Part shown: in pieces, positions 1,639 through 26,809 of the stretch
Layout: each line of letters starts with the position of its first letter
Numbering within the stretch: position 1 is the stretch's first letter
Assembly (NCBI GenBank): GCA_024275415.1
Contig: JAJRZD010000059.1
Span: 1 to 32,000, forward strand
Direction of reading: 5' to 3'
Source: an archaeon
Lineage (GTDB): Archaea > Asgardarchaeota > Thorarchaeia > Thorarchaeales > Thorarchaeaceae
DNA: 32,000 nt
Position numbers and translations under genes: made by a program
Notes under the pieces: generated by a model
Told to the model about the DNA's origin: nothing
Database searches by the model: none
The model's input: only the letters and a program-made list of their open reading frames with translations

Positions 1639-1647
1639 GTGATGCGA

Positions 1648-2607: not shown

Positions 2608-2622
2608 GAGTGAGGGACATCA

Positions 2623-3297: not shown

Positions 3298-4321
3298 AAT
3301 AGATATAGAACAAGGAACCAAAAGTAGGTCTTTCATCAGTTTTGGTAAACTATTTGCGCTCATCATAGTAGGTATGGTCATCTATCTGTTGATGATGTAC
3401 CTTTCCAAATGGGAAGAAGTCGTTGGCATCATTGTAAACATGGAGTGGTACTGGATCATCCCCACCATGATGATGCTAAGTTTCCTGAACTATGTCATTC
3501 GGTATTTCAAGTGGAACTACTACCTAAAACGGATAGATGTCCACTTCTCCCATGCCGATAGCTTCAGCATCTTCCTTGCGGGTTTCACGCTGACGGTCAG
3601 CCCAGGCAAGATTGGCGAAGCAATCAAGGGATACTTCTGCAGGGACGTGGATGGGACACCAGTGGCCAAGACGATTCCTGTCGTAGTTTCAGAACGAGTG
3701 ACTGACCTGCTTGCCATGGTGTTTCTTGCAGCTTTCACGTTTCTATTCATTTTCACAGAGGGCAACCAGCTTCTGTTTGTTGTTGCGTTAGGAGGCGCCG
3801 TGGTCGTGGGCGCGTTCGTCCTGACCAATAAGACATTCTACAACAAGATTCTCAAACGGATGACCTCATTTGGCCCGCTGAAGCAGTTTCAGGACAGTTG
3901 CGATGTGATCGAAGACACTATGGTTCGCACACTCTCGCCCAAACCCATGATGGTCGGCGTGCTGATAAGCATCCCCGGCTGGTTCATGGAATGCATAGAA
4001 CTGTGGCTCCTTCTCTCAGTCCTCTCTGGAGCTGGTCTGCCATCACTCTCTGCTGCATCATTATTCATCCTTATCCAAGCGACCTTTGTCCATGCCAGCG
4101 CCTCTGCAATCGGGGCTGTCGCATTCTTCGCCCCCGGAGGACTTGGAGCATACGAGATATATGCTCCAGCAGTATTGACCTCGCTCGGTTTCATAGTGGC
4201 AGTGGCGACAGCAAGCACTATCTTGATCAGATTTGTCACTCTGTGGTTCAGCGTCGTCGTTGGGTTTGTGGCACTGGGCATTGTCACCTATCGGAACCGA
4301 AAACGGCATTGTGAAACTTGA
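3290..4321 (+). CDS. UPF0104 / lysylphosphatidylglycerol-synthase TM-region protein (putative flippase, AglD2-like)
   Basis: About 8-9 TM segments with R..KW..YL, PGKIGEAIK, SERV.DL and PGGLG.YE motifs; ATG 3290 overlaps the PHP stop by 8 nt. Confidence 0.8.
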   Translation: MNEIDIEQGTKSRSFISFGKLFALIIVGMVIYLLMMYLSKWEEVVGIIVNMEWYWIIPTMMMLSFLNYVIRYFKWNYYLKRIDVHFSHADSFSIFLAGFTLTVSPGKIGEAIKGYFCRDVDGTPVAKTIPVVVSERVTDLLAMVFLAAFTFLFIFTEGNQLLFVVALGGAVVVGAFVLTNKTFYNKILKRMTSFGPLKQFQDSCDVIEDTMVRTLSPKPMMVGVLISIPGWFMECIELWLLLSVLSGAGLPSLSAASLFILIQATFVHASASAIGAVAFFAPGGLGAYEIYAPAVLTSLGFIVAVATASTILIRFVTLWFSVVVGFVALGIVTYRNRKRHCET

Positions 4322-4353: not shown

Positions 4354-4387
4354 AAAAATGTAGAGTGGGGGAGGAACCCCCATTCTA
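4354..4387 (-). terminator. Hairpin terminator between convergent operons
   Basis: TAGAGTGGGGG (4361-4371), loop AGGAA, CCCCCATTCTA (4377-4387): 11-bp stem with one non-WC pair. On the minus strand it is followed by TTTTT (4358-4354) and starts 11 nt after the stop at 4398. Confidence 0.6.
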
Positions 4388-4397
4388 TCTGTACTAA

Positions 4398-7300
4398 TCA
4401 CTCCATCTTGATCCCAAGACTGTTAAGCAAAGCCTCAAGGTCAGCCTTGGACAGAGTCTTTGCTTCCTCAAGGATGACCTCGATCTCGGCAGGTGCCAGT
4501 CCCTTCGCGAGGAGCTTCTGCCTTATCTCCTCAACCTCTTCAGGACGGGACTCGAGTGCAGCTGTTTCAACTGGCTTCTCGGGCTCTCTTTCCCTTGCAA
4601 GCGTGTCAGCCCTGCGGGCTTCCTCCTGAGCAATGACTTCCCTGATAAAGCCGGGTCTCTCGCTTGCCTTCATCTTGGCAAGGTCAGCTCTGAACGCTTC
4701 GATCTCAACAGCACCCAGTCCTGTAATCTCAGCAAGACGATCAAGAAGCTCGTTCACTTCTGGGACATGAGCTTGAATGGTTTCACCCACAACGTCATCC
4801 GGTTCCTTCACAAGTCCTATGGGTTTGAGTTCGTCTTGGATTATGGAAAGGAGCGTCATCTGGCGAGTCGGGGCACGGGCGGGCCTTGGCACCTTTCCTT
4901 TCTTCAGCTCCTTAATCATCCGGTTCAGTGCGCGTATCTGAACAGGGATGCTCCAGACACGCACGTAGTAGTACATCAGCACGGCTCCAATGATGAGTAG
5001 CGAGCCGATACCATAAGTGGCATTCTGGACAAGCACCTGTTCTGGCGTAGGATTGGAATCAATCTGAAGGTCAATTGCCGCTGCTGCATAGTCGCCTCTC
5101 GAGAACTGTATGGTCAGGTCATAGATGCCACCCTGCTCCACGACAAAGTACAGCACATAAGTTCCACCGTATTCGTCTATAGTGCGAATGAAGGATGGAT
5201 AATAGATGACCGCATCTGGATTGTCTGCTGTCACAGTATATGTGATGGTTGCATCGGGAATCGTTCTACCGTGGTCAATATCGAGATATGATATCGTCAG
5301 TTCGATGGTCTGACCAGGTAGTGTTTGAATAAGAGAGGAATCGTGGCTGATAAGGACAAGATCCGTGTCTACCTGTCTCACAGTGACAATGATCTGATAT
5401 GGTGAGATTTGGTATAGAGGTTTGATGAACGAGAGGTCAATTGTATATTCACCTATGTCCAAATCTCCAGGAATCTCAAGGATGTAGCTACCATTCTCCG
5501 CTATATCAAGAACCACCTGCTCAAGCCCAACCCAGTTCGCAATACCTGACGCATCACTGACGAACTCAGATACGATAGTGTTGTTCAGGTTATAATAGAA
5601 TACCAACGAGTCGTTTACAGGGATGGATATATATCGAGGCCCTTGAACGACAACTGGGAATGCATTGAGGTCAAGTCGTACCTTAAGATATGCCGTATCG
5701 TAGTTCTGCAAGATGAAGCGTACCTCTACATCATACCTCTTCGGTGTAGTCACATTCAAGTTCACGGCAACCGAGTACGTGCCATTTCCATAATCAGTGA
5801 CTTCTCCTGATCCGCCATCCCAAGAAGCCCGAACATCTGCCCCTGAGAGGGGAACATCGTGAAGTGAGTCGTTCAGTGAGAAGACATATACTACTGTATC
5901 ACCAAAGTAGCCGGCCTTGGAGCTAAGGTCAACCTCTACTGTTGTTGGAATTGGTTGGATGTTCACAAGGAACCGCACAATCTTTGTTTCATAGTACTCC
6001 TTTGAAAATGTAATCTTGAGGTAGATTGATTGTGCTGGCAACGAGGAGGTGTCGATTGTTGCTACGTAAGAGCCATTAGGCAACTCAGTTAACGAACCTG
6101 TTATATTTGCGAGGGCATATGTGACATTTGCACCTCTAATCAGACCACCGCCGAGATTGTCAGTCAGCGTCAATAAAAGATCTAGGTCTTCACCGTAATA
6201 GCTAAAAATGCTCGTAGCCAAATTGGGAAGATTCAATGAAATGGGAATAGGGTCGACTATAACCACAACAACCAAGTCTAGGAAATCATAGTTATTGTGG
6301 AATGCAGACACCTGCAACTCGTATTGTCCTATAGCAAAGCCTACAGTGTCAATATTGCTGACATAATAACCGGGGGTTCCATTCGTGACCATGCTGTAAA
6401 TTGTATTATTCCACTCTGCGGTAATGACAGCGTCGGTTATCGGTTGGTTCCTGTTTGTATCGTTGAGATAGACCCAAATCTGTCGGGTCGTATTTGTAAT
6501 GATGTTTATGAACGTCTGCTCTGGGATCACGTAGCCGATAGCCTTGGAAATGATGAAGGTCATCGTTGTCTGCTTTGGTTGATAGAACTCCTTTGTGATA
6601 GTAATTTGCGGCTGAGACACTCCGAAGTCATTGTCGGTCGTGTCAACAACCGTAACATATGTCCAATTGAGTAGGTCGCTGAACACATAGATACTCCCAT
6701 TCCAATATAGTGTGGCATTCATCCCTGGTATGTAAGTCCCATACAACGGGTCTTTGACATCTATCTTGATTGTCAACTGGTCGCCCCAATCCGCATAGAC
6801 TGTTGTGCTGGCAAGGATGATCTCAGCCGATGCGTCCCCAGGCGTTACACTGACGGTTATGTTGGCAATCACATAGAAGGCCAGTTCTGCTTGGATAGTG
6901 AACACGTATTCCTGTGCTAGTAGTCCAGTTGTGTTTATTGTAATCCTATAAGCTCCAGAACCCAGGTCTTGGATTATTGCATCTGTCGAATATAGAGTTA
7001 CCCAGTCAGTGGTTATCGCAGCTCCTGAGATAGGAGAGCCATCCTGAGTGGTCGTAAAGGTCAGATTGACTAGGATAGGTTGCCCAACAGGTTGCGATGC
7101 TACGGAGGGAACCTCTGCGATAAGAATTGTCGGGATGAGGATAATCTTCGCTGGTATCTGGCTTGCCGAACGTGCACTGTAGAATGGAGACCCAGATATT
7201 GACACGCTGACATTGAAATATATGGTGCCGGTGTTACCGAACTGCGCTGTCGGGACTATGATTTCGTATAACCCCGAACCAAGGTCAGTGATGTAGTGAG

Positions 7301-10300
7301 TCGGGCTTGTCATATTCAAGAATGAAACGGTCACTATTGCCCCTTGGATTCCGCTGTCTGTCAGGAAATCAATGTACTCGAAGTTGATTGTGATGTTCTC
7401 ATAGTATGGAGTGTCCGCTACGAGCGGAAACAGTATCTGTGTGGGTCTCTCAGTAGTCGTGACTGATGTTGATATGCTCCGAGGTGCATAGTATGGTACT
7501 CCTGCACTTGCATCAATAGTCATCTGAATTGGATGACCTGTTACCAATGCACTTGGATTCAGGATTGTCGAGTTGAACGAGATAGTATAGATACCGCCCG
7601 ATTCTGTGAGTGTGTAATCTGTACTTACGATGACAGTCATCCCTGCGCCATGGGTTAATGTGATCTCGGCCTTGGTGATTGAGATGCTTATGCCAGTCAG
7701 GAAATCGGTATAACGGAACTTGAACACGACCAGCTCCAGGAAGGGGACTTCGCCAGGAGTTTGTGTGATGAGTATCTGGGTTGTTCTCTGGGTGACTCGC
7801 GAGTTCACGTTGGCACTGGCAAGGGCATAGAACGGAGAGCCGCTCCTTGAGATGTTGACCTGCAAGACGAACACACCCACGCTCCCAAGAGCGGTGCTAT
7901 CGATTTCGATGAGATACTCTCCAGTCCCAAGATCAGACACCCAATAGTTGGTGTTGATTAGCAGGGAAGATGAAGAGTTAGAACAGTAAACAACTACAGA
8001 GCCTCCAGATATTGGAGTGCTCGTCGAATCATCAAGATAGGTCACGATGAATGAAACGTTGTTCAGATATGGTGTAGGATCAGGGGTTTCATAGCCCAGC
8101 TGGGTTATCCGCTCAATGATAGTGAGTTCAAAGATTTCGATAGCATCCGAGGCAAAGTTGGATCCATCATAGATTATGGTCGCGTTGATGTAAAACAGCC
8201 CAGCGCTTGCAAAATAGGTGGTATTGATCTCTGCAAGATAATGTCCTCCACCTAGTGATGTGATGGTATACGCTGCTAATGAAAGGTTGAAACTAAGTAT
8301 GCCGGTCATGCCACTAGATGTCCCTGACACCAAATCTGTGTACACGAATTCGATGGTCACATTTTGACCCCATTGCGGAGCTGCAAATGAGAGATGTGTG
8401 AGCTGGGTAGACCGATACGTGACTGTCACCGAGAAGTCTTGAAAAGCCTCTTCATAGAACGGTTCACCAATCCATGTGATGTTAAGGGTCAAACTGCTCG
8501 TGCCAACGCCTAACGCAGAGGTGTCAATCCTCATGGTGAATACCATTGTCACACTGTCATACAACAGAGTAAATGGCACACCACCACCGACGATGCTGAT
8601 GTACAGATTGCTTGAGTTAGAAATCTTCTCCGACGTAAGGGAGTTTACATAGCTGAATGAGAAATCAGCAAGTTCGCCATAAGGTGTAGATCCAATTGGG
8701 GTGTAATCCACATAGGTTGGAATCCCAAGAACCACAAGTGTAACGGTGATGGTCTGATTTTCATAAAGGGGATTGATTGCCTTTCTCCAAAGGAAATCGA
8801 TTTGGAACTTGAAAGTTCTTGCAGCACCAAATAACGAGGCGTTCAGCTCAAAACTGTAGGTGCCACTTGTGTCTATCTCCGCTATCACAAAGTCTGCTTG
8901 AGTCACACTGTGTCCTGTAGTAATCGGAATAACAGAAATCAGCACATTGTTTGTGGAGTTCGATATCCTTGTGGCATTCACCACATCATAATAGACGAGG
9001 GTGAACGTGAAGTTGTCGAGATAGTTTGTTGCAGTCGGAGCTATCTCCAGATAGAGATCGGTTTCCGTTCCCAAAAGCCTGACCCTAGTATCCAGCACCT
9101 GTGAGTAGTAAGTCTGTCCACCCGTCCAAGAAGCTGTGATTGTCAGATTCTTCCATCCTATAGACGACCATTGTGAGCTCGATATAGTGATATTATAGTG
9201 TCCATCGCCCAGAGCTGAAACAGACGAGATGAAGGCTAGAGATGTTACATCAGGGGATGTGATATCAAAATCGACAAAGCCAGACCCATTCGTGATTCCT
9301 TGAAGCAAGTCTGTGTCTTGATAGAACACAAGAACCACAATGTCCTGCCCAATGGGGGTCTGCTCGATGGGAGAGTCGAGGACGAACTGGGTATTGTGTC
9401 TGCGAATCTCGACTCCTATTGAGAATGTGTGATTCTGGTAGTCCTTTCGAGTCACATTGAAGACCACATTGTAGAGGTTGCTTGGTGTGGTCAATGGGTC
9501 ATCGATCTCTGTGAATATCGTGACGTTGTACACGCCCGGGCTTGTTTCGACGACAGTGTAGTTTTGCTCACCCGTTGTGTGGAACGATGTCCAGTTGCTT
9601 GTGATTGCTGATGCCATCCCTGTGATGGGTTGGTCATTATCAGTGTCATACCATGTAATGGTAAACGAAGCAGACTCGCCAACTGGGATTGATAGTTGAT
9701 TTGCTGAATAGCTGACTGTGTTATAGACCTCACGGATTTCTACAAACATCAGCATACTTCGGGGTTCTACAAATGATGCACTTGCTGAGATCAAAACGGG
9801 ATAACTACCGAAAACTATCCCAGAAGTAGTAAGAACAATTTGGTACTGACCTGAACCAATCTCTGTAACCGTGTAGGAATTTGTCCAATTCGTCTGTATC
9901 GAGGCACCAAGAATTCCTGTCCCGTTGACATTCTTGAATTCCACAATGAACGTCTGGTCATTGCCGATAGGACCCTGAATCCCAGGATAATCAGGAGATG
10001 TCAGTTCAGCATTATAATTGACATTCACTGTCAGAACCGCATTCGCAGTATCAAAATTATTTGCAGTCCATGTTAGGTCGATTGTGTATTGACCCTTACC
10101 AGGGAGTAGCGAGGTATCAAGAACTTTGGTATACTGTCCATTACCACTATCATCGAAGGTATCGCTTCCCAAGACCCAGTTCATCGAGAGTGTACCTCCG
10201 GGAACGACCACCTGACTGTCTGTATCGTTGGCAGTGATGATGATCAGCAAGAGGTCACCATAAGTCACGTTCGTCTTCCAAGTACCTACTGCATCATCCG

Positions 10301-12161
10301 GATAGTTGATTGTCAATGCAGATGTGTGCGTGACCGAAAAGGGTCTTTTGAAAAATCCTGTCGACCTCCAGTCAGTATTTGTCCCTACATCATTGCTGAA
10401 TGCTTGAACCATCCAAGACCCAGCAGAAGCATTGGCTCCATCAAAAGTCAGCCATGGAGTAGTCGCATATCCTGAACCATCAGTTGTTGCGTTCACACTA
10501 TACCATTTTTGGCCTGTAGGGGTGTAAACAGTGAAATTGACCACAGAATTGGCGTAAGCAGCGCCTAGATTGGCACGGATCTGTGTGGAATTCCCAGCCC
10601 TAAGGTCAATTGTCCTGCTCCATACAAGTGCATTCGGATCATAAAGCTCGATGTCACTAATCATGTTTGGTGACTTGCTCAATATCCGCCAGTAACCGTA
10701 ACGACCTGCCTCAGTGGCAACATCATACGTAGACACATTTAGGAACCCATCACCTGGGTTTCCTCCATTCCATCCGGTGGTCAGATTCGTTGATGGGGCC
10801 AAAGGACGAGCTACAAAGTAGACATCCCTGTTGGCCGGGATGGTCATGTTGAAGAAGTATCGATTCGCGTAGCCTTGAGGAATATCTGCATAGAAATATG
10901 TGGAATAAGACGCATCAGTGCCGTTTTGTATCGAAAACCGCTCACCGAATGCTGTAGGATTAATCTCCTTCACAGTTCCAAAATCCAACCGCCGAGCGAA
11001 CATATTGATGTTAACATCAAATTCGACTATGATGGTTCGATTCGGCACCGGATTGATAGGAGTTGGACTCCAAGTGAAATTCATTCTCACAGGATCAGTA
11101 ATCCACGGAGTAGTTGGAGTTTCAACGATGAATCCAGAACCATAGCCCGTGTTATCTGTAACAGGATTCCCGTTCATCTCGAGGTTGAGGCTAGTGGGTG
11201 TGGCACGAGTCTTCAGATACAACTCGATGTTATCAAATTTCGCAGCTGGAAGAATGTTAGGCGCATAGCCATAGGTTCCTTTGCACCAGAGACCCACTTC
11301 AAGTGTGACACTTTGATCAGTAGGCAGGTTGAATGTGGATGTGGGAATAGAAACCAAACCTGAGTCGTACCATGTTTCCTCAGCGCCAATTTCTGTAAAC
11401 GACTTCTCCCAAGTCCAAGTGCTTTCGACTGTTAGATAGATCGAGAATGCTCCGGTCATCCCATAGTGTGTGTCATCTCTCGTATCGGCCCAATAGTCAG
11501 TTCTAAACCCGGCCCAAACAACTTGTCCGCGGGGAGCTGTCATTGTCTGTTGCGCCCAAGCTCGATCACCTCCAGAGTAGTAAAATGGTGAGCTTGCACT
11601 ATTAGAGTCAATGAAGAAATCAAAGCTACCATCTCCCGGGCCATGTCCGCTGGAGTTGTAGAGAGAAGTTTCTGATGAATACGACCCTCCATCTGTCGTT
11701 CCTCGGGTCCAACCAGTATCAGACCCTGTCAGGTCGGGGTTCTGTACCCAAGTCCGGTTCTCGGTAATCTCGGTCAAATCAGCACGGACTTGGTAGGCTT
11801 CCCAGTTGTTGCCAGTGGGGATATCAACTGTGACATTTGTTGTCACATTTGTCGGAAGGTAGGTCATCTGCATTGTGTTTTGGAGGGTCGTTGAGTTGCC
11901 GAATTCAGATGCGATGAGTTCCGTCGAGTCACCTTGCCACTCGACCCATCCCTGTTCAGTCAAGACAAACTTGTGAAGTGTTTCACCGGGAGCCACCTCA
12001 ATTGTTTCTCCATTGCCAATATCGACTAAAGATGAACCACCAGCACTATCATCTGAAACTCCCACTGTTCCAAGGTCAGGACCAAGAGCAGGACCCGCGA
12101 AGGTAGATAGTAGCATCAATAATCCTACGAGGATAACTGGAATCAGGCTTGTCTTCTTCAT
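4398..12161 (-). CDS. Giant (2587 aa) single-pass cell-surface glycoprotein A with cytoplasmic tail
   Basis: Signal-like N-terminus MKKTSLIPVILVGLLMLLSTFA; Thr/Tyr/Ile-rich beta repeats with recurring G.G.Y; about 60 N-x-S/T sequons by manual count; TM YGIGSLLIIGAVLMYYY (~4963-5016); charged ~187-aa tail. Confidence 0.9.
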   Translation of the reverse strand: MKKTSLIPVILVGLLMLLSTFAGPALGPDLGTVGVSDDSAGGSSLVDIGNGETIEVAPGETLHKFVLTEQGWVEWQGDSTELIASEFGNSTTLQNTMQMTYLPTNVTTNVTVDIPTGNNWEAYQVRADLTEITENRTWVQNPDLTGSDTGWTRGTTDGGSYSSETSLYNSSGHGPGDGSFDFFIDSNSASSPFYYSGGDRAWAQQTMTAPRGQVVWAGFRTDYWADTRDDTHYGMTGAFSIYLTVESTWTWEKSFTEIGAEETWYDSGLVSIPTSTFNLPTDQSVTLEVGLWCKGTYGYAPNILPAAKFDNIELYLKTRATPTSLNLEMNGNPVTDNTGYGSGFIVETPTTPWITDPVRMNFTWSPTPINPVPNRTIIVEFDVNINMFARRLDFGTVKEINPTAFGERFSIQNGTDASYSTYFYADIPQGYANRYFFNMTIPANRDVYFVARPLAPSTNLTTGWNGGNPGDGFLNVSTYDVATEAGRYGYWRILSKSPNMISDIELYDPNALVWSRTIDLRAGNSTQIRANLGAAYANSVVNFTVYTPTGQKWYSVNATTDGSGYATTPWLTFDGANASAGSWMVQAFSNDVGTNTDWRSTGFFKRPFSVTHTSALTINYPDDAVGTWKTNVTYGDLLLIIITANDTDSQVVVPGGTLSMNWVLGSDTFDDSGNGQYTKVLDTSLLPGKGQYTIDLTWTANNFDTANAVLTVNVNYNAELTSPDYPGIQGPIGNDQTFIVEFKNVNGTGILGASIQTNWTNSYTVTEIGSGQYQIVLTTSGIVFGSYPVLISASASFVEPRSMLMFVEIREVYNTVSYSANQLSIPVGESASFTITWYDTDNDQPITGMASAITSNWTSFHTTGEQNYTVVETSPGVYNVTIFTEIDDPLTTPSNLYNVVFNVTRKDYQNHTFSIGVEIRRHNTQFVLDSPIEQTPIGQDIVVLVFYQDTDLLQGITNGSGFVDFDITSPDVTSLAFISSVSALGDGHYNITISSSQWSSIGWKNLTITASWTGGQTYYSQVLDTRVRLLGTETDLYLEIAPTATNYLDNFTFTLVYYDVVNATRISNSTNNVLISVIPITTGHSVTQADFVIAEIDTSGTYSFELNASLFGAARTFKFQIDFLWRKAINPLYENQTITVTLVVLGIPTYVDYTPIGSTPYGELADFSFSYVNSLTSEKISNSSNLYISIVGGGVPFTLLYDSVTMVFTMRIDTSALGVGTSSLTLNITWIGEPFYEEAFQDFSVTVTYRSTQLTHLSFAAPQWGQNVTIEFVYTDLVSGTSSGMTGILSFNLSLAAYTITSLGGGHYLAEINTTYFASAGLFYINATIIYDGSNFASDAIEIFELTIIERITQLGYETPDPTPYLNNVSFIVTYLDDSTSTPISGGSVVVYCSNSSSSLLINTNYWVSDLGTGEYLIEIDSTALGSVGVFVLQVNISRSGSPFYALASANVNSRVTQRTTQILITQTPGEVPFLELVVFKFRYTDFLTGISISITKAEITLTHGAGMTVIVSTDYTLTESGGIYTISFNSTILNPSALVTGHPIQMTIDASAGVPYYAPRSISTSVTTTERPTQILFPLVADTPYYENITINFEYIDFLTDSGIQGAIVTVSFLNMTSPTHYITDLGSGLYEIIVPTAQFGNTGTIYFNVSVSISGSPFYSARSASQIPAKIILIPTILIAEVPSVASQPVGQPILVNLTFTTTQDGSPISGAAITTDWVTLYSTDAIIQDLGSGAYRITINTTGLLAQEYVFTIQAELAFYVIANITVSVTPGDASAEIILASTTVYADWGDQLTIKIDVKDPLYGTYIPGMNATLYWNGSIYVFSDLLNWTYVTVVDTTDNDFGVSQPQITITKEFYQPKQTTMTFIISKAIGYVIPEQTFINIITNTTRQIWVYLNDTNRNQPITDAVITAEWNNTIYSMVTNGTPGYYVSNIDTVGFAIGQYELQVSAFHNNYDFLDLVVVVIVDPIPISLNLPNLATSIFSYYGEDLDLLLTLTDNLGGGLIRGANVTYALANITGSLTELPNGSYVATIDTSSLPAQSIYLKITFSKEYYETKIVRFLVNIQPIPTTVEVDLSSKAGYFGDTVVYVFSLNDSLHDVPLSGADVRASWDGGSGEVTDYGNGTYSVAVNLNVTTPKRYDVEVRFILQNYDTAYLKVRLDLNAFPVVVQGPRYISIPVNDSLVFYYNLNNTIVSEFVSDASGIANWVGLEQVVLDIAENGSYILEIPGDLDIGEYTIDLSFIKPLYQISPYQIIVTVRQVDTDLVLISHDSSLIQTLPGQTIELTISYLDIDHGRTIPDATITYTVTADNPDAVIYYPSFIRTIDEYGGTYVLYFVVEQGGIYDLTIQFSRGDYAAAAIDLQIDSNPTPEQVLVQNATYGIGSLLIIGAVLMYYYVRVWSIPVQIRALNRMIKELKKGKVPRPARAPTRQMTLLSIIQDELKPIGLVKEPDDVVGETIQAHVPEVNELLDRLAEITGLGAVEIEAFRADLAKMKASERPGFIREVIAQEEARRADTLAREREPEKPVETAALESRPEEVEEIRQKLLAKGLAPAEIEVILEEAKTLSKADLEALLNSLGIKME
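5065..10325 (-). repeat. About 17 degenerate ~100-aa beta-sandwich (Ig-like) protein repeats in protein A
   Basis: Approximate consensus T.L...(Y/W)G....V.Y.D....I.GA.....G.G.Y.I.I.T..L..G.Y...I; 17 instances of the G.G.Y.I.I.T strand counted. Boundaries approximate; not a DNA-level repeat. Confidence 0.65.
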
Positions 12162-15100
12162 TCTTTCATTCCTCCGAGTTGGTCGAGAAGTGCTTGTATC
12201 TCGGCCTTTGACAGGTGTCGAGCTTGTTCCATCATCAATTCAGCTTCGCTTTCCTCGATTCCCATCTTCAGTAGTTGCGCTTTCAGGTCTGCAAGCTCTT
12301 CTTCGCTCAGTCGGGCTTCTGCCTCTTCGGCTGCCCTAGCTGGAGCCTCGGCAGCATCCGCAATCTCCTTGGCACGTCGGGCTCGTTCCTGCCTAATGAC
12401 CTCATTGAGGAAACCACCACGTTCGCTTGGCTTCATCTTATCCAAGTCGCGTCGAAGCACAGCTGTGTCAGCCTCGGTCAACCCAACAAGTGTCGCAAGC
12501 TCTTCTAGTAGCCTCTCAGTATCAAGAGTTTCTACTTCCACGGAATACTCTGAGATGTCTTCGGGTGGTTTTACGATACCTATCGGTTCCAGTTCCTCAT
12601 TGATCCATTCCAGCATCATCTTTCTCCGTGAACGCACAGGCTTGGGAGATGGTATGCGACCCTTGGAGAGGGTCGAAATCATTGAACGGATCCACCTCAA
12701 CATCTTTGGAATTGAGAGTACCCTGAACCAGAGAGCGGCAAAGGCGAATAGTGCAAGAATGCCGATGGATCCCCATCTGAAAGCATTCTGAGCTGCAATC
12801 TGCTCTTCGGTAGCCACGGCATGTATGATGACCTTTGCAACTGAGTCCTCATGGTTGCTCGAAGACAGGGTAACGACGATTTCATAACGTCCAATATCAT
12901 TCAACCTGAAATAGAAGAAGTATGTGCCATTCGTGCCCTGATGCTCTTCATCTACTAACCTCTCAGCGTTCGTTCCTTCTGTACTATTGGTCGCATCATA
13001 GATTGGGATGTTATGGTCAAGATCCCAATAAGTCAAGTTTAGAATCACGAGTCCACCTGCAAATGCTGAAGGAGAGGGACTTTCGAAGAAAACAGTCGTA
13101 CGAATCGGTCGTATGGTAAGAGTCACTTCCATGACACGACGTTCATAATTCTCCTTGGAAAGAACAATTCTCAAAGAGTAATTGCCGATGGGTAAGGTCG
13201 TTTCTCCAGTAATATCAGGGCCAAAGAAGTACGTGCCGTTCCCTGCGTCTGATAGGGCTATAGTTCCAAACTCCCAGAATACGGTATTTATCGCATCTGT
13301 GACCCACTGATCATTGAGAGAGTCATAATAGCTGAATGACTGCGAGTAGTCATCACCCCACGGAATGACTGGATGTTCATTTCCTATGATCTCTGTAGGA
13401 ATTGGATTTACCAACAGCCGCACAATCACATTGGAGAACTTGTATCCATCTTTCTCGAAGCTTACTGTGATCTGATATGGTACTGAGCTCGAAACAAGTA
13501 GAGATGTATCAATTGTCATCGAGTATGTTCCGTTGTCATAGTCAGTCAGATTACCACCAAACGCTGAGAAGAGGAAGGTAGCATCTGCACCAGGTACTCC
13601 TTCATCAAAGCCAACGTCCCAGAAGTTGAACCTAAATGTGGCGTTCTGTCCGTAATACACATCAATCTGAGTATCAGTCAGGATGATGATTTCTGTGGGG
13701 GCATCGTCAATCTCGATGGTGAACTGGATGGATGAAGGAGCGTATCCTTCACGGGAGCTGGTGATTGTCAGAATCCATGTTTTTATTTCCAGACCGAGTG
13801 TGGAGATATTTGCCGAATAGTAGCCGTTGCCAATCTCAGTCAGATTGCCGATGATGTCGCCAAGACTGTAGGTTAACGTGGCACCTGTGATGGGCTGAGA
13901 AAGGTCTGTGTTGTTGAGGTAGACTGTTACCGTGAAGTTGTTATTTGCTACAACCTCAATATATGTCACAACGTTTGCTGCCACCATCTCGGTTTCAATC
14001 ACATTGACTTCCAGTGTGACTTGCGTATTGATATCACGGTAGTTTGTAGAACTAGCTTGGATGAGTATTTTATGACTGCCAACGATGACATCATTGATTG
14101 TGAACTGACCGACATAGCGATTCTCGGTTGATGACCAAATCAAAGAACCTGAACCACCAATCCATGAGAAGGTCACCACTCCGTTCGGGATATCAGTCCC
14201 GTTTGATTGGATCTCGTAATCCACATAGACTGCGACTGTATCACCATTGACCGTGGAGAACGGGGTCAGGTCAGCTGCAATCTTCGATGCAATCTTCTCA
14301 ATCCGTAATTGACTATCGAACTGCCGCACTTCATGGTTTACTTTCTCGAACTGGATTGTTAGTGAATAGTCCCCAGCATCGTAAATCTTGGAATTGAAGG
14401 TAGTCTGGTAGATCCCGTTTGCGACGTATGTGAACACGTAGGTATCACTCAAGATAGTTACATTTGTGACACCCCCTGCAATTGGGTTACCATTGAGTGC
14501 GTTGGTGATGTTCAACTGAATCGTGATTAAATCACCCCACAAAGGAGTTTCAGGTACTATGCTTACCTCAATGTTTACAGGGATAGCAGCCAGAAGAATC
14601 TCCACATCAATTGATTTGTTCACATGGATAAACTTCGATGCGTTTATCATGAACGGGTATTTCTGAGCATCGAGGCCTGACGTGTTTATGAGCAACTGAT
14701 AGATACCATTACCAAGGGGAGTGATTGTCATTATGGTGCTATAGGTCGTATTCCAGTCAGAAGTCACATTCGCACCATCGATTCCGATTCCAGTGTCGGC
14801 CTCTGTGAATGTCACATTCACCTCGACTATCTCGCCGAGGTAGTTGGTCGAGCCGCCACTTGTCTGAAGCGTGAGGACAGTTGCGACCGGGGTGAGAATG
14901 ACCGAATATGAGATGGCGGTCTTGTTTTGGTAGTATGGCGAACCAAACCATGTGATGTTCGCCCTGAAGAAGTAACGACCCATCTTCACAAATCCGGACG
15001 AGTTTACACGGATCGTGTAAGTCCCATCATTGTTATCGAACCACCAAAATTGGATGCTCGTTTCGTTCAAACATTCTACAGTGATCGATGCACCAACAAT

Positions 15101-18100
15101 ATCGGAACCTGATAGATAGTCGGAATACGTGATGATTGCGGTCATGTTATAGCCATATGATGCAGGAGGAGTGGAAAGAATCCCGCTCTGTGTTAGACGA
15201 CTTGTAATCGATGCCTGCGTCGAAGTAGTAGCATTCGCGTAGTAGGGAGACACATCACCCCAGATGAAGTCCAGCTGAATCAGAAGCGAATCCACAAGAA
15301 CCGATGTAATCAGCTGTGAATCAATCGATATCGAATAGGTCGTACCATCGTAAGATAGAGAGTAGGAGGTATCGGGCAGAGTTGTCCCTGACCCATAGCT
15401 CACGGTCAAGTGACTTTTAGTCAATGCTATGCTGGAACCAGATAGCCCATCAGTTGCCGTGAACTCGAAGGTGACATTCTCCAAGAAAGGTGTGTTAAGG
15501 GGAGACTTGGTCACAACCAGCCTTGCTTCTCGTCGTGATACCTCAATTGCAATATCACGAACGCGTTCAACATAATATGGTGCCCCGGTCCAATTCACAG
15601 TGATTGTGACTAGATATGAACCAAATGTTCCCAGAGCTTGGGTCGAAATCCGGATAACATATTCTCCTGTACCTAGGTCATCAACCCAGTAGTTAGTGTT
15701 CAGTTCGAGGGGTGTCGAGGCATTCGAGCATTCAGCAAAGACGTTGGCAGATACAATGCCAGTCCCGTTGCTGTCATCAATGTAGTTGACAGAGATATTT
15801 GCCAGTGTCAGGTACGGAGCCAAATCGGGCAGCTCGCTTGTGAGCTGGGTTCGCCGCTGAACGACAGAAAGGTAGAACGAATCTGTTGCGTCATTGCAGT
15901 ACCGGATTCCTCCGTACGCTATTGAAACATTGATATGATAATAGCCTAGGACTGCAAAAGCAAAAGTGCTCAGCTCTAGCGAGTATGTGCCATCGCCATT
16001 GTCAGTAACCCAGTAGAACCCACTTAGTGACGCGTCTAACGTAAGTGTACCACCATTCATCCCAGTTGTTGTATAATCGTCGAGGTCGCGATAGGAGAAA
16101 AGAATCGTGACATTGTTCCCATACTGCACAGGAGCATAGGCTCCGTGTGTTAACTCAGTATATCGATATCGCGTTGTGATTGAGATAGATATCCCTGTGC
16201 GGTTCTGATAATAGGGTACTCCACTCCACTCGATAGATACCGTGAACGAATTCTCTCCGGGAACCCAAACAGAGGTGTCTACCTCTATGAAGAATATCCC
16301 AGTTAAATCACCATCATAGTAAATCGTGAAGCCGTAGCCAGGGACTGTGATTGTGAGGTTGGGCGCATTCAGTATGACATTACCGGTCAACACATCTTTG
16401 TACGTCAGTGACAAGTTAACCAGTTCATCATAGGGAGTGAGAGGCAATGGATTCCATTCTACCGTGGTAAGCCGATAGGTGGAATATACAGTCAGCTGGA
16501 GGGATTGGTTAGCATAATACGGAAGGACACCTTTTGTCCAGTTCATCCACACACGGAGGTCACAGCCAATGAGTCCACTCAGATAGGACGTATTGAATTC
16601 AATCCGGTATTCTCCAGGGCTGTTGATGTAGTCGACCTCGGTGATGACCATATTCTGCTGAGTCAAAGCCTGCCCAGCAGTCAGTACCTCAACATAGATT
16701 CTTACGTTCCCCAGATATGCACCAGTGCCATTAACAATCCCTGTGTCGTTTCCAAGATCATAATAGATGATTGTGAAAGTCACATTCTCACCGTAAGGAG
16801 TCATAACAGGACTCTCGCCGATGAAAATGTCAGTTGGAGCCTCGATGATTCTCGCGGTCACATCAAGCGTTTCATTGGTGTACTTGACGGTGGGCCCCGT
16901 CCAATTAGCATAGATATGTAACACTTGAGACCCTATGCTTCCCCATTGTGATGCATCAATATAGATGATGTATTCCCCAGCCTCGGTGCCATTCTGAACA
17001 GTAAAGACAAGCCCAGGCAGAGTGTCACTCACAACATCGATCCGCACGTTATATCCGACAATACTCCCATTCTCAATACCTGTGTCCGCGTCTGTATCGA
17101 AGTAACGTACAGAGATCGAGATATCACCTGTATACGGCGTGGGATCTACGGGGTTAACAAGATAGAACGATGTCAGATGAGTTCGCAGTTCAACTGTCAC
17201 TGTGAAGGTATGATTTTGCACGCCATATTGCTCGACATTGAAAACCACAGTATATACTCCAAGAGTATCAAGGTCAGAGGAGTAGATGTCTACTGTATAG
17301 ACGCCGGGTGTAGCAGATTCTGTCACAGTGTAGTTCATATCACCAGATTTGTGGATAGCAGACCAGTTGCTCGATATCGCGCTTTCAGCACCTGTGATAG
17401 GGGTGTTATGGTCTGTATCAGTATACGTAATGGTGAATGAGGTAGTGTAGCCTACAGGTAATGAGAGTACGCTCGTTGAAGGGATTGCAGAGGTGAAGAG
17501 CTCACGGACTTGCACCGATAGCAAGATGGTGCGTGATTCAAAGAAATCTTTCTCGGCGGTTATTGCTACCACATAGGTTCCAAGGGGAACGGTATTCGTT
17601 TGAAGGCTGATTAGGTATTTCCCTGGCGTCACGCCATCAGGTGTGACTGTATAGGTGTCCAACGTCCAGTTGATACTAATTGTAGCAAGGTCAATCCCCG
17701 TGAGTGTTTGATCCTTGAACTCCACTGTGAGTTCAGCATCGTACCCCTGTGGCACGTCGACGCCGGGTGCCTCAGCAGAAAAGAGGTCAGTGGTGTATAT
17801 AGCATTGATCGTAAAGGTCGCCACTATTGGGTCATAATAGCTCTTTGACCAAGAGAGGCTGACATCATATTGTCCATTTGATGGGAGAGTTGTCGTATCT
17901 AGTGTGACGCTATACTCACCCGTTCCCAAGTCACTCATCGTCCCTGAGCCTCCTGCCCAGTTATAATTCAGAGTGCCTCCACTTAGTAAGTCACCATTGT
18001 CTGAATCATTCACTCGAACCTGAAGAAGCACAAGATCCCCATAAGTCACGTTCGTTGTCCAAGAAACAACTGCATCCACAGGGTATTTCACATTCATCGA

Positions 18101-19957
18101 AGTGGAATGCTCGATATCGAATGTCCTAGTGAAGAAGCCTACGTTATGAACCTCGGCCTGTGATATAGCATCAGTGCTGAATGCCTGTACCTCCCAAAGT
18201 CCCACAGAGGCATTTGCTGCGTCCAGATTGACGAAGGGAGTGATGGCATAACCACTACCATCAACGGTTCCTTGAAGTGTGACCCACACAGAAGTATTCG
18301 GAGAGTAGACTGTGAATGTAACGACATCATTGGTGTAGGTTGGTGAGAGCGTTGCTCGGAATCTGGTGTCCTCATTGGCTCGGAATGTATGAGTCCTAGT
18401 CCATTGCGCCAGTGTGCTATCCCACACCTCAACATTTGTAATCATATTAGGCGAAGAACCCTTCAGCAGCCAGAAACCATTCTGGTTTGTTTGGGTTATC
18501 TGAAACACAGAGATATTGACTAGACCGTCCCCCGGATTCCCATAACTCCATCCTGATGTGAGATTGACAGTACGAGCGTAGGGTTGAGCAACGAAGTCAA
18601 TATCCCTATTAGATGGTAATGACACATTGAAGTAATACTTTGAAGAATAGCCACCGGGAACGGCAGCATAATGGTTGGTTTCCCAACGCACATCGGTACC
18701 ATTCTGAACTACATAGTTGTCGCCCAGAGTAAATAGCTCGGTGTTATTGATGGTGAGAACATTATACCGTCGAGCCCAGACTGTTACGCTCACATCAAGG
18801 GCGATGTTTATGTCGAGATTAGGGTCAGGCGGGTTAGGTATGGGGGTCCAAGTGAAATTAGCGAATGCCGCACCTCCAGTGAATATATTTGAGGTATCGG
18901 TGGCCGTCCCAAGTCCAAAGATTGGAGTTGATCCGGAGAAAACATCATTGACAGAAACCCCATTCATCTGCAGGTTGATATTGGATGGCGTTGCCTTCGC
19001 AGTGATATATACAACAAGGTTGTCGACACGGGCCTGAGGTTCTGTGTCGGGCCTCCACCACTCAAAGGCAGTGGTACGCAGTCCAACCCATAAGGAAATA
19101 TTCGGTAATGTCAGCGTGCTGACATCAACTGTAACATATCCAGATGAAAACCACGTTGCCGAGGCAGCCATGGAGTCAAATTCCATACTCCAGAGATAGG
19201 TCCCACCATTATCGGGGTCACCAACTGACACGAAAATCTCACAGAACCCTGTCAGTGAACTCCAAGTGATGTCGGCCCAATAGTCAAGGGAGATGCCAAT
19301 CTGAGTCACATCGCCTCTATCAATCGTAAGGTTTTGGACGGCGTATGCCTTATCACCAATGTCATACCAATAACCATAGAGCCCTCCTCCTGCGTCATAG
19401 TAATAACCATCCAGTTGAAATTGCGCGGCGCCACCTGGATTTCCTCCGGTTGAAATCCACTGAGAAGTGAACGGAGGGTTGCTTATGTTGTAGATTGATG
19501 GTTCATCATGAGTATACCAATTCCAGTCAGTATCAGCGTCAAACCCTGAGTTTGCGACCCATGTTCGATTCTCGGTAATGCTTGTGACATTAGTGAAGAC
19601 CTTATAGCCCTCCCATCCTGTACCGAGTGGCACTTGCAGGCTTGCTCCTGATGTTGTTTGTGTGCCAGAATCATAGTAGAGTTGGACATTGGAGAACGAG
19701 TCGGTTCGGTTACCATACTCTGATGCTGATAGAGAATCGCTTGTCCCAGTCATCTGCGTCGGTACATCGGAAAGTCGATATTCATAGACAGTTTCATCAG
19801 ATCCAATCTCTATGAGATCCCCAGAGTCAGTTTCATAATAGTTGGATCCATCTTCATTTGGTATCATCGCTCCTTGCTGTAATGGGAAGAGAAGTATACC
19901 GGTCAGCAATGGGAGAATGACTCCAAAAAATAGGATAATCTTCTTTCTGTGACGCAT
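12158..19957 (-). CDS. Giant (2599 aa) single-pass cell-surface glycoprotein B, paralog of A
   Basis: Signal-like MRHRKKIILFFGVILPLLTGILLFPL; same domain order as A; TM WGSIGILALFAFAALWF (~12727-12777); ~188-aa tail homologous to that of A. Its TGA overlaps the ATG of A (ATGA, 12158-12161). Confidence 0.9.
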   Translation of the reverse strand: MRHRKKIILFFGVILPLLTGILLFPLQQGAMIPNEDGSNYYETDSGDLIEIGSDETVYEYRLSDVPTQMTGTSDSLSASEYGNRTDSFSNVQLYYDSGTQTTSGASLQVPLGTGWEGYKVFTNVTSITENRTWVANSGFDADTDWNWYTHDEPSIYNISNPPFTSQWISTGGNPGGAAQFQLDGYYYDAGGGLYGYWYDIGDKAYAVQNLTIDRGDVTQIGISLDYWADITWSSLTGFCEIFVSVGDPDNGGTYLWSMEFDSMAASATWFSSGYVTVDVSTLTLPNISLWVGLRTTAFEWWRPDTEPQARVDNLVVYITAKATPSNINLQMNGVSVNDVFSGSTPIFGLGTATDTSNIFTGGAAFANFTWTPIPNPPDPNLDINIALDVSVTVWARRYNVLTINNTELFTLGDNYVVQNGTDVRWETNHYAAVPGGYSSKYYFNVSLPSNRDIDFVAQPYARTVNLTSGWSYGNPGDGLVNISVFQITQTNQNGFWLLKGSSPNMITNVEVWDSTLAQWTRTHTFRANEDTRFRATLSPTYTNDVVTFTVYSPNTSVWVTLQGTVDGSGYAITPFVNLDAANASVGLWEVQAFSTDAISQAEVHNVGFFTRTFDIEHSTSMNVKYPVDAVVSWTTNVTYGDLVLLQVRVNDSDNGDLLSGGTLNYNWAGGSGTMSDLGTGEYSVTLDTTTLPSNGQYDVSLSWSKSYYDPIVATFTINAIYTTDLFSAEAPGVDVPQGYDAELTVEFKDQTLTGIDLATISINWTLDTYTVTPDGVTPGKYLISLQTNTVPLGTYVVAITAEKDFFESRTILLSVQVRELFTSAIPSTSVLSLPVGYTTSFTITYTDTDHNTPITGAESAISSNWSAIHKSGDMNYTVTESATPGVYTVDIYSSDLDTLGVYTVVFNVEQYGVQNHTFTVTVELRTHLTSFYLVNPVDPTPYTGDISISVRYFDTDADTGIENGSIVGYNVRIDVVSDTLPGLVFTVQNGTEAGEYIIYIDASQWGSIGSQVLHIYANWTGPTVKYTNETLDVTARIIEAPTDIFIGESPVMTPYGENVTFTIIYYDLGNDTGIVNGTGAYLGNVRIYVEVLTAGQALTQQNMVITEVDYINSPGEYRIEFNTSYLSGLIGCDLRVWMNWTKGVLPYYANQSLQLTVYSTYRLTTVEWNPLPLTPYDELVNLSLTYKDVLTGNVILNAPNLTITVPGYGFTIYYDGDLTGIFFIEVDTSVWVPGENSFTVSIEWSGVPYYQNRTGISISITTRYRYTELTHGAYAPVQYGNNVTILFSYRDLDDYTTTGMNGGTLTLDASLSGFYWVTDNGDGTYSLELSTFAFAVLGYYHINVSIAYGGIRYCNDATDSFYLSVVQRRTQLTSELPDLAPYLTLANISVNYIDDSNGTGIVSANVFAECSNASTPLELNTNYWVDDLGTGEYVIRISTQALGTFGSYLVTITVNWTGAPYYVERVRDIAIEVSRREARLVVTKSPLNTPFLENVTFEFTATDGLSGSSIALTKSHLTVSYGSGTTLPDTSYSLSYDGTTYSISIDSQLITSVLVDSLLIQLDFIWGDVSPYYANATTSTQASITSRLTQSGILSTPPASYGYNMTAIITYSDYLSGSDIVGASITVECLNETSIQFWWFDNNDGTYTIRVNSSGFVKMGRYFFRANITWFGSPYYQNKTAISYSVILTPVATVLTLQTSGGSTNYLGEIVEVNVTFTEADTGIGIDGANVTSDWNTTYSTIMTITPLGNGIYQLLINTSGLDAQKYPFMINASKFIHVNKSIDVEILLAAIPVNIEVSIVPETPLWGDLITIQLNITNALNGNPIAGGVTNVTILSDTYVFTYVANGIYQTTFNSKIYDAGDYSLTIQFEKVNHEVRQFDSQLRIEKIASKIAADLTPFSTVNGDTVAVYVDYEIQSNGTDIPNGVVTFSWIGGSGSLIWSSTENRYVGQFTINDVIVGSHKILIQASSTNYRDINTQVTLEVNVIETEMVAANVVTYIEVVANNNFTVTVYLNNTDLSQPITGATLTYSLGDIIGNLTEIGNGYYSANISTLGLEIKTWILTITSSREGYAPSSIQFTIEIDDAPTEIIILTDTQIDVYYGQNATFRFNFWDVGFDEGVPGADATFLFSAFGGNLTDYDNGTYSMTIDTSLLVSSSVPYQITVSFEKDGYKFSNVIVRLLVNPIPTEIIGNEHPVIPWGDDYSQSFSYYDSLNDQWVTDAINTVFWEFGTIALSDAGNGTYFFGPDITGETTLPIGNYSLRIVLSKENYERRVMEVTLTIRPIRTTVFFESPSPSAFAGGLVILNLTYWDLDHNIPIYDATNSTEGTNAERLVDEEHQGTNGTYFFYFRLNDIGRYEIVVTLSSSNHEDSVAKVIIHAVATEEQIAAQNAFRWGSIGILALFAFAALWFRVLSIPKMLRWIRSMISTLSKGRIPSPKPVRSRRKMMLEWINEELEPIGIVKPPEDISEYSVEVETLDTERLLEELATLVGLTEADTAVLRRDLDKMKPSERGGFLNEVIRQERARRAKEIADAAEAPARAAEEAEARLSEEELADLKAQLLKMGIEESEAELMMEQARHLSKAEIQALLDQLGGMKE
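12825..18105 (-). repeat. About 17 degenerate ~100-aa beta-sandwich protein repeats in protein B
   Basis: Same consensus as in A (GTGEYSVTLDT, TPGKYLISL, GDGTYSLEL, GNGIYQLLINT, DNGTYSMTIDT etc.); 17 counted. Boundaries approximate. Confidence 0.65.
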
Positions 19958-20023
19958 TTTATTGGGACCTCCATCTAGTCTATCATCAGCTATGTTCTCT
20001 GCAAAAGCAGAGGAAGTCTTACC

Positions 20024-20034
20024 TATAAATATAC
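20024..20034. promoter_or_regulatory. TATA-box-like element in the divergent giant-protein/cupin intergenic region
   Basis: TATAAATATAC on + (GTATATTTATA on -), about 70 nt upstream of the ATG at 19957; a small IR CTCTGC-AAAA-GCAGAG (19997-20012) lies between them. Confidence 0.4.
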
Positions 20035-20132
20035 ACTGTCACAAACAGGTCAAAAAATCGAAATATATCCCGAATTTTCGAAATAGCGGTTTTCAGAACG
20101 GTACAATAATATCTGACGTACATATAGTGTGC

Positions 20133-20492
20133 ATGGTTAAAGTGAGAGTCCATAAAATAGTCAATGCAGAAATTGCAAGCAGAGCGGGGTATCAAGCTCG
20201 ATATATCGCAGATGTGCGTCTACAAAGTCCAATCGCAACTGTGGGAGTGATACAAGTCGAAATCAAACGGGGAAGGAAGACAAGTCCGCATACACATGAA
20301 CATCTTGAAGAACTGTTCATACCGCTTGGTAGGACGAAGATGGGAGTTGGCGAGTCAATCATAGAGTTGGAGCGTGGGGATGTGGTCATTGCGGAACCGG
20401 GCGAGAAGCACTGGTTCGAAACGTATCCGGACGAGGATGTGATGGTAATCGCCCTCAAACTACCCAACCTAAAGGACGACAAAATCCAATAG
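20133..20492 (+). CDS. Cupin-domain protein (119 aa)
   Basis: Cupin motifs PHTHEHLEELF and GDVVIAEPGEKHWF. Start moved from 19962 to ATG 20133 because the upstream extension covers the AT-rich divergent promoter region. Confidence 0.85.
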   Translation: MVKVRVHKIVNAEIASRAGYQARYIADVRLQSPIATVGVIQVEIKRGRKTSPHTHEHLEELFIPLGRTKMGVGESIIELERGDVVIAEPGEKHWFETYPDEDVMVIALKLPNLKDDKIQ

Positions 20493-20496
20493 GTCA

Positions 20497-20916
20497 CTAG
20501 AGTGGCTCGTCGTCATCCTCATCAAAAGATAGGTCAATCGAGCCAGGTCGCTTCTTTGACACGGTGGGTACTGCACGGAATATTGCCCTTGTGAGTAGTT
20601 TCCATTCCTGATATCTGTGGTGTCGTCCAAGCACCCCTGCAAGGGTGATCACAATGAAGACAACAGAGCCAAAAAGAACCATTTCCCAGATAGAGGAAAA
20701 GTGAGCTGAGGCGGTCATTAAAGCTACAACCGCTACAGCGGACACGATGATAGTGTTGAGATAGCAGTCACAGGTTATATTGAGTTCTGGTGGTCCCAAC
20801 TGGAAATCCTCTGGATCCGAACCCGGTGCTCGGTTCAGGTAATAGTTGAAGACTGCTGCAAGAAGCGTCCCAATTATAATAAGAGCCCCAGTAATGATAT
20901 CCATGTTATTGCACAT
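20497..20916 (-). CDS. Small hypothetical membrane protein (3 TM) with acidic C-terminus
   Basis: Three hydrophobic segments, a basic stretch, then DEDDDEPL. Starts 6 nt after the PIN gene stop; alternative start ATG 20904. Confidence 0.7.
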   Translation of the reverse strand: MCNNMDIITGALIIIGTLLAAVFNYYLNRAPGSDPEDFQLGPPELNITCDCYLNTIIVSAVAVVALMTASAHFSSIWEMVLFGSVVFIVITLAGVLGRHHRYQEWKLLTRAIFRAVPTVSKKRPGSIDLSFDEDDDEPL

Positions 20917-20922
20917 CCAGAT

Positions 20923-24169: not shown

Positions 24170-24210
24170 GCCACATAATCCTCACCGCGAGCATTGGAGA
24201 CAGGGATAGA

Positions 24211-26790: not shown

Positions 26791-26809
26791 GCAATTCACC
26801 GGTCAGTGG

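Follow-up and report, generated by a model that had tools for sequence, protein, structure and literature searches.

The question raised by the locus described here is whether two giant surface proteins, encoded one directly after the other in a genome of the Thorarchaeia, act as two parts of one structure or as two separate proteins. The genes, which we call A and B, lie in a stretch of 32,000 nt (contig JAJRZD010000059.1 of assembly GCA_024275415.1, positions 1-32,000), referred to below as the window, and all gene coordinates are positions in it. We suggest, tentatively and at a little less than an even chance, that A and B are the obligate pair of subunits of a glycosylated surface spike or coat, borne on stalks, with tails that dock a cytoplasmic partner. 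The support for this reading is genetic and evolutionary, and the physical association of A with B and their 1:1 stoichiometry are things that we infer from coupled translation, co-retention and matched lengths.

Two co-linear paralogs joined at an ATGA overlap

The two genes and the signals around them are as follows.

12158-19957, minus strand: gene A, 2599 aa, with signal peptide, head, 16-17 immunoglobulin (Ig)-like repeats, transmembrane helix and tail
4398-12161, minus strand: gene B, 2587 aa, co-linear paralog of A, 35% identical to it
12158-12161, minus strand: ATGA overlap of A's stop and B's start, four bases common to A's TGA and B's ATG
12171-12175, minus strand: GGAGG, the Shine-Dalgarno site for B, 9 nt before B's ATG and inside the codons of A's conserved C-terminal Gly-Gly
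19968-19972, minus strand: GGAGG upstream of A, 10 nt before A's ATG
20024-20033, minus strand: TATA-like box TATATTTATA, -76 to -67 from A's ATG, a candidate promoter element judged on sequence only
4354-4381, minus strand: GGGGG-TTCCT-CCCCC hairpin (G5/C5) followed by T5, terminator-like, 16 nt past B's stop

BLASTP aligned A with B over their full length at 35% identity (923/2609) with 4% gaps, and because the alignment runs end to end we regard the two as co-linear paralogs. These are not chance open reading frames (ORFs), as full-length homologs were found at E = 0 in dozens of genomes. An earlier reading, made from the letters of the window and referred to here as the sequence-only reading, had proposed a paralog pair of near-equal length joined by an ATGA overlap, with a shared upstream promoter region and downstream terminator, and the coordinates above bear this out: the TATA-like box precedes A, within the spacer of about 175 nt that separates A from a divergent cupin gene, and the hairpin with its T5 run follows B. 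The same reading held that a likeness to cadherin/integrin-type receptors would matter if the host were an Asgard archaeon, and the named homologs are indeed almost all hypothetical proteins of 'Candidatus Thorarchaeota'.

Neither protein belongs to a named family. When whole A and B, and their heads and tails as separate pieces, were searched against Pfam and NCBIfam, no family scored above the curated cut-offs, and the matches below them were limited to MG2, an EMC7 beta-sandwich, FH2 and RecX_HTH1. A phmmer search of A against all PDB chains gave no match, and the family was not found described in the literature on surface and S-layer proteins of Thorarchaeota. It is therefore probably undescribed, as far as the literature found goes.

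The pair is retained across the class

Whole-genome searches for A-like and B-like matches were carried out on 87 genomes of the class. Adjacent genes in the order A then B, on one strand and with A upstream, were seen in 41 of the 87 genomes and in 14 of 17 genera, and the pair is also present in G001, the single genome of a second family. Nowhere among the 87 was an intact A or B paired with a different neighbour; the other genomes have the genes broken into fragments or placed at the ends of contigs, and in G058 the pair locus is rearranged or degraded.

For analysis of the overlap, 20 pair loci besides that of the window were fetched. The A/B junction was a 4-nt overlap in 13 of them, -1 nt in two and a gap of +4 to +14 nt in three, the start of B being unresolved in the last two. 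In the window and in 15 of the 20 loci a GGAGG precedes the ATG of B by 9-10 nt, and it is encoded by an invariant Gly-Gly near the C-terminus of A, a motif that B does not have. In two genomes, G001 and G003, none of the window's neighbour genes was found and the pair was still present, and so the flanking genes are not what keeps A and B together.

When the stalk-plus-tail region was placed in a tree with unpaired relatives as root, A formed one clade (support 91) and B another (support 99), with mirror topologies and G001 basal in both, which dates a single duplication to before the sampled class. Both copies were retained after that duplication, with neither loss nor conversion. One genome (G060) carries A-B-A-B on one contig, showing that the pair is itself the unit of duplication. 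A distant relative of 2687 aa from Hermodarchaeia has a diverged form of the tail and is unpaired in its contig. The sequence-only reading had raised the possibility that A and B always occur as an adjacent pair, and adjacency in 41 genomes of 14 genera, conservation of the overlap and the Shine-Dalgarno site, and duplication of the pair as a unit all speak for it.

Two stalks of fixed length

The largest part of each protein is a stalk of tandem repeats.

12806-18055, minus strand: stalk of A, residues 635-2384, 16 Ig-like repeats and one unmatched gap
5049-10274, minus strand: stalk of B, residues 630-2371, 17 Ig-like repeats

Repeats were counted with an iterated hidden Markov model (HMM) seeded on one repeat, and are thus defined by sequence profile and not by fold models. 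The HMM detected 17 repeats in B and 16 in A, where residues 1871-2000 form an unmatched gap of one unit length. Repeats recur every 100-110 aa or so, and the arrays run from residue ~630 to residue ~2375. Orthologs add Pfam hints of a beta-sandwich (PF13620, PF09430).

Across 20 genomes, in proteins that are only 41-55% identical, the stalk of A measures 1766.6±5.8 aa and that of B 1752.0±4.5 aa, and each repeat is specific to its position. The gradient of conservation is alike in A and B: identity to the window sequence is 0.48-0.66 in the head and repeats 1-9, 0.29-0.44 in repeats 12-17, and 0.56 in the tail. Together these observations suggest, unlike what is seen in strain-variable adhesins, a structure whose dimensions are set, its distal half being functional and its proximal half acting much as a spacer.

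Heads, membrane topology and predicted glycosylation sites

The head domains and the elements that set the topology of the two proteins are these.

18995-19573, minus strand: jelly roll of A, residues 129-321, a beta fold like that of carbohydrate-binding modules (CBMs)
18101-18448, minus strand: macroglobulin (MG)-like domain of A, residues 504-619, a beta sandwich
10287-12080, minus strand: head of B, residues 28-625, co-linear with the head of A
19868-19957, minus strand: signal peptide of A, residues 1-30, with a basic n-region and hydrophobic core 5-27
12707-12772, minus strand: transmembrane helix of A, residues 2396-2417, over the hydropathy threshold
4944-5015, minus strand: transmembrane helix of B, residues ~2383-2406, placed by eye and below the hydropathy threshold

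An AlphaFold2 (AF2) model of the head of A (residues 28-640, from a 40-row alignment) is all-beta, with a predicted local distance difference test (pLDDT) score of 87.8 and a predicted template modelling (pTM) score of 0.71. VIA matched residues 129-321 to a hyaluronan-binding module, a CBM16 and an alginate CBM at Z 12.1, and further to CBM4, CBM61 and CBM22 at Z ~10-11; Foldseek gave TM 0.60-0.65 to CBM16/61. The CBM-like fold of this modelled head does not prove that it binds sugar. For residues 504-619, the VIA matches at Z 10-10.8 were MG domains of complement C5/C3, alpha2-macroglobulin and an S-layer domain, and B has a weak Pfam match to MG2. The heads of A and B are 37-40% identical. 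In many lineages A carries an extra N-terminal six-bladed propeller of the NHL type, of about 290 aa, which is never found on B. Both forms of A occur in assembly GCA_004524595.1, where two syntenic contigs, SDOA01000009 and SDOA01000027, each encode A and then a B of 2580 aa, the A being of 2895 aa with the NHL propeller in one case and of 2607 aa without it in the other. This is either strain-level polymorphism of the tip or the result of a mixed bin.

B begins, like A, with a signal-peptide-like segment that is first basic and then hydrophobic (hydrophobic residues 3-27), and in both proteins a basic juxtamembrane stretch directly follows the transmembrane helix. There are 67 N-X-S/T sequons in A and 64-65 in B, all before the transmembrane helix and about twice as many as in composition-preserving shuffles (32.6±5.1, maximum 47, for A; 29.3±4.7, maximum 42, for B). 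Their placement and enrichment fit a predicted N-glycosylated ectodomain and a cytoplasmic tail. The long type I membrane topology claimed by the sequence-only reading thus agrees with the position of every sequon and of the basic stretch, and the order of parts that it gave, namely signal peptide, head, repeats, transmembrane helix and tail, was found complete; its figure of about 188 aa for the tail was too high, the tails being of 182 and 181 aa. No NCBIfam match to a haloarchaeal-type PGF-CTERM signal was found in A or B, and some 182 residues follow the transmembrane helix instead.

A cytoplasmic tail shared with other giant proteins

12161-12706, minus strand: tail of A, residues 2418-2599 (182 aa), all-helical and family-specific
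4401-4943, minus strand: tail of B, residues 2407-2587 (181 aa)

Both tails are helical, net acidic past the basic juxtamembrane stretch, and end in Glu. Mean column identity of the tail is 67-68% among A orthologs and among B orthologs, the invariant residues being specific to each type. An AF2 model of the tail is all-helical; it is locally confident (pLDDT 80.8), and its global arrangement is not fixed (pTM 0.34). The S-layer protein PySLP, compared below, has a conserved beta-hairpin between its last Ig domain and its transmembrane helix; in the tail model, which begins only 11 residues upstream of the transmembrane segment, those 11 residues are helical and continuous with it. A Foldseek search of this model against PDB gave no match at E < 1 and returned only generic three-helix bundles, and neither Pfam nor a feature search of the ESM Atlas found a tail relative. 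Pfam and fold comparison likewise gave no support for a UBA-like last module of the tail. An internal duplication of the tail was considered, and is unproven: hhalign of its two modules aligned only 19 columns at 72% probability, too weak a match.

A profile built from 24 tails matched only 141 clusters among 1.84 billion representative proteins. Most of the matched segments are C-terminal or nearly so, in large proteins of up to 5543 aa or in fragments of such proteins, and a few weak matches are to small, seemingly unrelated proteins; the named matches are from Thorarchaeota or Hermodarchaeia. The window's genome has three tail carriers: beside A and B there is one more giant paralog, on contig C1. 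This paralog (G000:C1:63021-71066, L003/L004) exceeds 2682 aa, is cut by the contig end and shares the transmembrane helix and tail; the conserved blocks of its tail are separated by a longer linker, and no paralog lies after it. In some of the larger relatives (P0192, P0194, P0197, P0128) there are four tandem copies of the last three-helix module of the tail (about 60 aa). Its set of carriers makes the tail a lineage-specific domain, for anchoring or docking, that is common to a superfamily of giant surface proteins.

How A and B may work, and what the alternatives are

By the reading we favour, a single bicistronic mRNA would carry both genes, and B would be translated by coupling through the ATGA overlap and the Shine-Dalgarno site in the last codons of A. 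Both proteins would pass through Sec, receive N-glycans and stay anchored in the membrane through the single C-terminal helix, each ectodomain presenting a distal head (CBM-like jelly roll and MG-like domain) on a fixed-length stalk of a predicted 17 position-specific Ig-like domains. A and B may then assemble, side by side and in register, as stalked spikes some tens of nm long that make up or carry a surface coat. Contacts, whether between A and B, with glycans or with partner cells or particles, would fall to the more conserved distal halves; the less conserved proximal repeats would act as spacers, and the conserved helical tails could dock the spike to a cytoplasmic partner.

Several observations weigh against this reading. 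A query with the head of A found no ortholog in G010 (a single contig), G082 (96% complete), G038 (99%) or G017 (91%), the last from the same genus as the window, which means either that the pair is nearly rather than strictly universal or that it is often left unassembled. Giant repetitive genes are readily lost from metagenome-assembled genomes. All genomes but one come from one family, and part of the synteny may accordingly be inherited and not selected. The occurrence of the tail on the unpaired C1 paralog and on many larger relatives means that the tail alone cannot be the device that pairs A with B. Finally, codon adaptation is only median, at the 47th percentile for A and the 55th for B, when a dominant coat protein would be expected to score high, and this speaks against their being a dominant S-layer protein. 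Giant ORFs elsewhere in this genome stand at the 92nd-99th percentile. The reference for these values consists of only four genes (EF-1alpha, EF-2 and two thermosomes), because the ribosomal protein L2 family was not found in the window's assembly, and it is a weak proxy.

It is also possible, although we think it unlikely, that A and B are a heterodimeric transmembrane receptor, integrin-like in function only, whose heads bind a glycan or a partner cell and whose tails relay to cytoskeletal, trafficking or GTPase machinery. The CBM-like head and a codon adaptation that is moderate rather than extreme would suit such a role, as would a tail that is among the most conserved parts of the proteins, that combines high local with low global model confidence (pLDDT 80.8, pTM 0.34), as expected of a docking region, and that keeps different invariant residues in A and in B. 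However, Pfam, Foldseek and the ESM Atlas revealed neither a signalling or kinase domain nor any known binding motif in the tails, the tail is shared with unpaired giant paralogs, and no conserved gene for a cytoplasmic partner adjoins the pair, the nearby leucine-rich repeat (LRR) gene being 5.7 kb away and present in only 4 of 10 upstream flanks.

We give an equally low probability to the idea that A and B are two independent adhesins, co-expressed, with different ligands and no mutual contact, so that their adjacency would reflect co-regulation and shared history. The heads have diverged to 37-40% identity, only A gains the extra NHL beta-propeller tip in many lineages, and tandem giant genes are common in this genome. 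Yet independent adhesins tend to come and go and to differ in their number of repeats, whereas the stalks of A and B are invariant and matched within 1%; neither copy has been lost wherever the locus is assembled, the pair duplicates together, and the stop/start overlap is conserved.

Less probable still is a true paracrystalline S-layer, in which A and B would be the lattice and pillar proteins of a two-component, PySLP-like colossal S-layer, with the conserved distal half as lattice and the proximal Ig repeats as pillars. Size and plan do resemble PySLP (292 kDa, 19 Ig-like domains, lattice core plus Ig pillar, C-terminal transmembrane helix), conservation is high distally and low proximally, the length is fixed, the distribution is that of a core gene, sequons are enriched and the fold matches include S-layer Ig domains (7ptp, 8c8o), but codon adaptation is average, the cultured Asgard archaea imaged so far have no ordered S-layer, both subunits are transmembrane-anchored with 182-aa acidic helical tails and not the short basic tail that defines PySLP, no PDB chain was matched by sequence, and each protein has only 2-5 Cys against 14 in PySLP. 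The sequence-only reading had held that A and B are not plain S-layer proteins: the long conserved tail and median codon adaptation point that way, and a stalked coat stays a live reading.

In keeping with the spike or coat that we favour, cultured Asgard archaea have been reported, from cryo-ET, to bear complex, non-crystalline surface proteins whose identity was left open (PMC9834061; 10.1101/2025.11.06.686947). The Asgard cell surface is central to models of how an archaeal host met its bacterial partner. We know of no cultured Thorarchaeote. A and B are large, conserved in the class, of fixed dimensions and easily recognised in sequence, and this makes them a concrete candidate for tomograms and proteomes, and the tail a defined bait for the link from surface to interior in Thorarchaeia. 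If the spike or coat that we favour proves to be an obligate heterodimer with a cytoplasmic partner, it would be a new type of archaeal envelope organisation. A bolder and quite improbable proposal is that the pair is a heterodimeric outside-in linker, running from a glycan-binding head on a rigid, ruler-like stalk to two complementary tails and on to Asgard cytoskeletal, endosomal sorting complex required for transport (ESCRT)/trafficking or small-GTPase machinery. Such a linker would do in a prokaryote, and in the lineage nearest to eukaryotes, what adhesion receptors do, and its tail would be a new protein family restricted to Thorarchaeia and Hermodarchaeia.

Neighbouring genes and other giant ORFs

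Convergent to B, at 556-4321 on the plus strand, lies a four-gene operon for a DUF362 protein, a UbiA prenyltransferase, a PHP phosphoesterase and an LPG_synthase_TM-like protein. The operon was found just downstream of B in 8 of the 10 other flanks checked and was absent in G001 and G003. Upstream of A are a gene for an ADP-forming acetyl-CoA synthetase-like protein (ACD; 24130-25650, plus strand) and one for an LRR protein of 373 aa (25678-26799, minus strand), and 4 of 10 other genomes, as well as GCA_004524595.1, have the two in the same position relative to A; they too are absent in G001 and G003. With operon and ACD/LRR genes both missing from these two genomes, the association with neighbours may be inherited synteny. 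The operon may serve surface glycosylation through a lipid-linked sugar pathway, or may be merely inherited synteny.

In those other genomes the ACD and LRR genes are accompanied by unannotated genes of 1167, 197 and 731 aa, which the window does not have. In the window, a cupin gene, a 139-aa gene and a 602-aa PIN-domain gene (19962-22731) separate A from ACD/LRR; elsewhere these three sit on the far side of the operon downstream of B, which indicates a local rearrangement in the window's genome.

Other giant ORFs of this genome include an adjacent pair (G000:C63:62487-76962, L053) of 2697 and 2183 aa at the 92nd-97th percentile of codon adaptation. The 2697-aa protein has FG-GAP/beta-propeller repeats of an integrin-alpha-like kind, and the 2183-aa protein has a sub-threshold match to a bacterial TSP3 repeat. 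There are also an S8 subtilase of 1561 aa (G000:C1:2-4684, 99.5th percentile) and an unannotated ORF of 1891 aa (G000:C67:1-5673, 98.8th percentile); their codon adaptation is the highest of all the giant ORFs, and going by this proxy the two are better candidates for very abundant surface proteins than A and B.

Comparison with known systems

Bacterial giant Ig-repeat adhesins of the SiiE, LapA and Bap/Embp type follow the same head-stalk-anchor logic with many tandem beta-sandwich repeats, and one of the fold matches is to a large-adhesin extender repeat (6xi3, Z 10.0). However, those adhesins are secreted by type I secretion systems or anchored by sortase, usually vary in repeat number, have neither a transmembrane helix nor a cytoplasmic domain and do not come in matched pairs. 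A and B differ in having stalks of constant length, a transmembrane helix and a cytoplasmic tail.

The likeness to integrin alpha/beta is one of architecture only: two type I proteins with large stalked ectodomains, single transmembrane helices and cytoplasmic tails. In contrast to A and B, the integrin chains are not mutual paralogs and their tails are short peptide motifs. Integrin chains form an obligate non-covalent heterodimer, which for A and B is a prediction drawn from co-retention. Of the domains that define integrins, the FG-GAP propeller of the alpha chain and the betaI/vWA-like domain of the beta chain, Pfam detected neither in the two proteins; where A has its long form, its propeller is of the NHL/six-bladed type. 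Nor was there any match to cadherins, which are defined by EC repeats with Ca-binding motifs, at E up to 0.1. Of the analogy to cadherins and integrins drawn by the sequence-only reading, the stalked type I layout therefore stands, and homology or a shared mechanism finds no support.

SlaA and SlaB of the Sulfolobales are adjacent, co-expressed genes for two parts of one Ig-rich surface structure that stands tens of nm above the membrane. A and B resemble them in being adjacent, and by prediction co-transcribed, genes for two subunits. SlaA and SlaB are non-paralogous and of very unequal size, and only SlaB is anchored, through a coiled-coil stalk, whereas A and B are 35%-identical paralogs of equal length, both anchored and both tailed.

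A and B are giant Ig-repeat, transmembrane-anchored archaeal surface proteins, and their closest analogue is the PySLP family, the colossal S-layer proteins of Thermoproteota described from Pyrobaculum arsenaticum (292 kDa; bioRxiv 10.64898/2026.08.21.746120). The proteins have in common a length of ~2,600-2,700 aa, a signal peptide, a long Ig-like array, N-X-S/T sites and a single C-terminal transmembrane anchor. As in PySLP, tandem Ig-like domains (16-17 repeats of ~100-110 aa) make up most of the ectodomain of A and B, and each has a single C-terminal transmembrane helix. They differ in that PySLP is the product of a single gene, and A and B of a translationally coupled paralog pair by our reading. 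A CBM-like jelly-roll head and few Cys further set A and B apart, and the phmmer search of A against PDB chains showed no sequence relationship. Members of the PySLP family are taken to form a paracrystalline lattice and to be the most abundant envelope protein; for A and B the proxy for abundance is codon adaptation, at the 47th and 55th percentile. The very short, highly basic tail ending in Lys is replaced in A and B by a conserved, acidic, helical tail of ~182 aa (182 and 181 aa) that ends in Glu, and the contrast that the sequence-only reading had drawn with short S-layer tails holds against the short basic tails given for transmembrane-anchored archaeal S-layer proteins in the PySLP preprint. 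What the two systems do share is a distal functional region above a membrane-proximal pillar, and the distal-functional, proximal-spacer plan that we suggest for A and B follows the same logic as the lattice-plus-pillar of PySLP.

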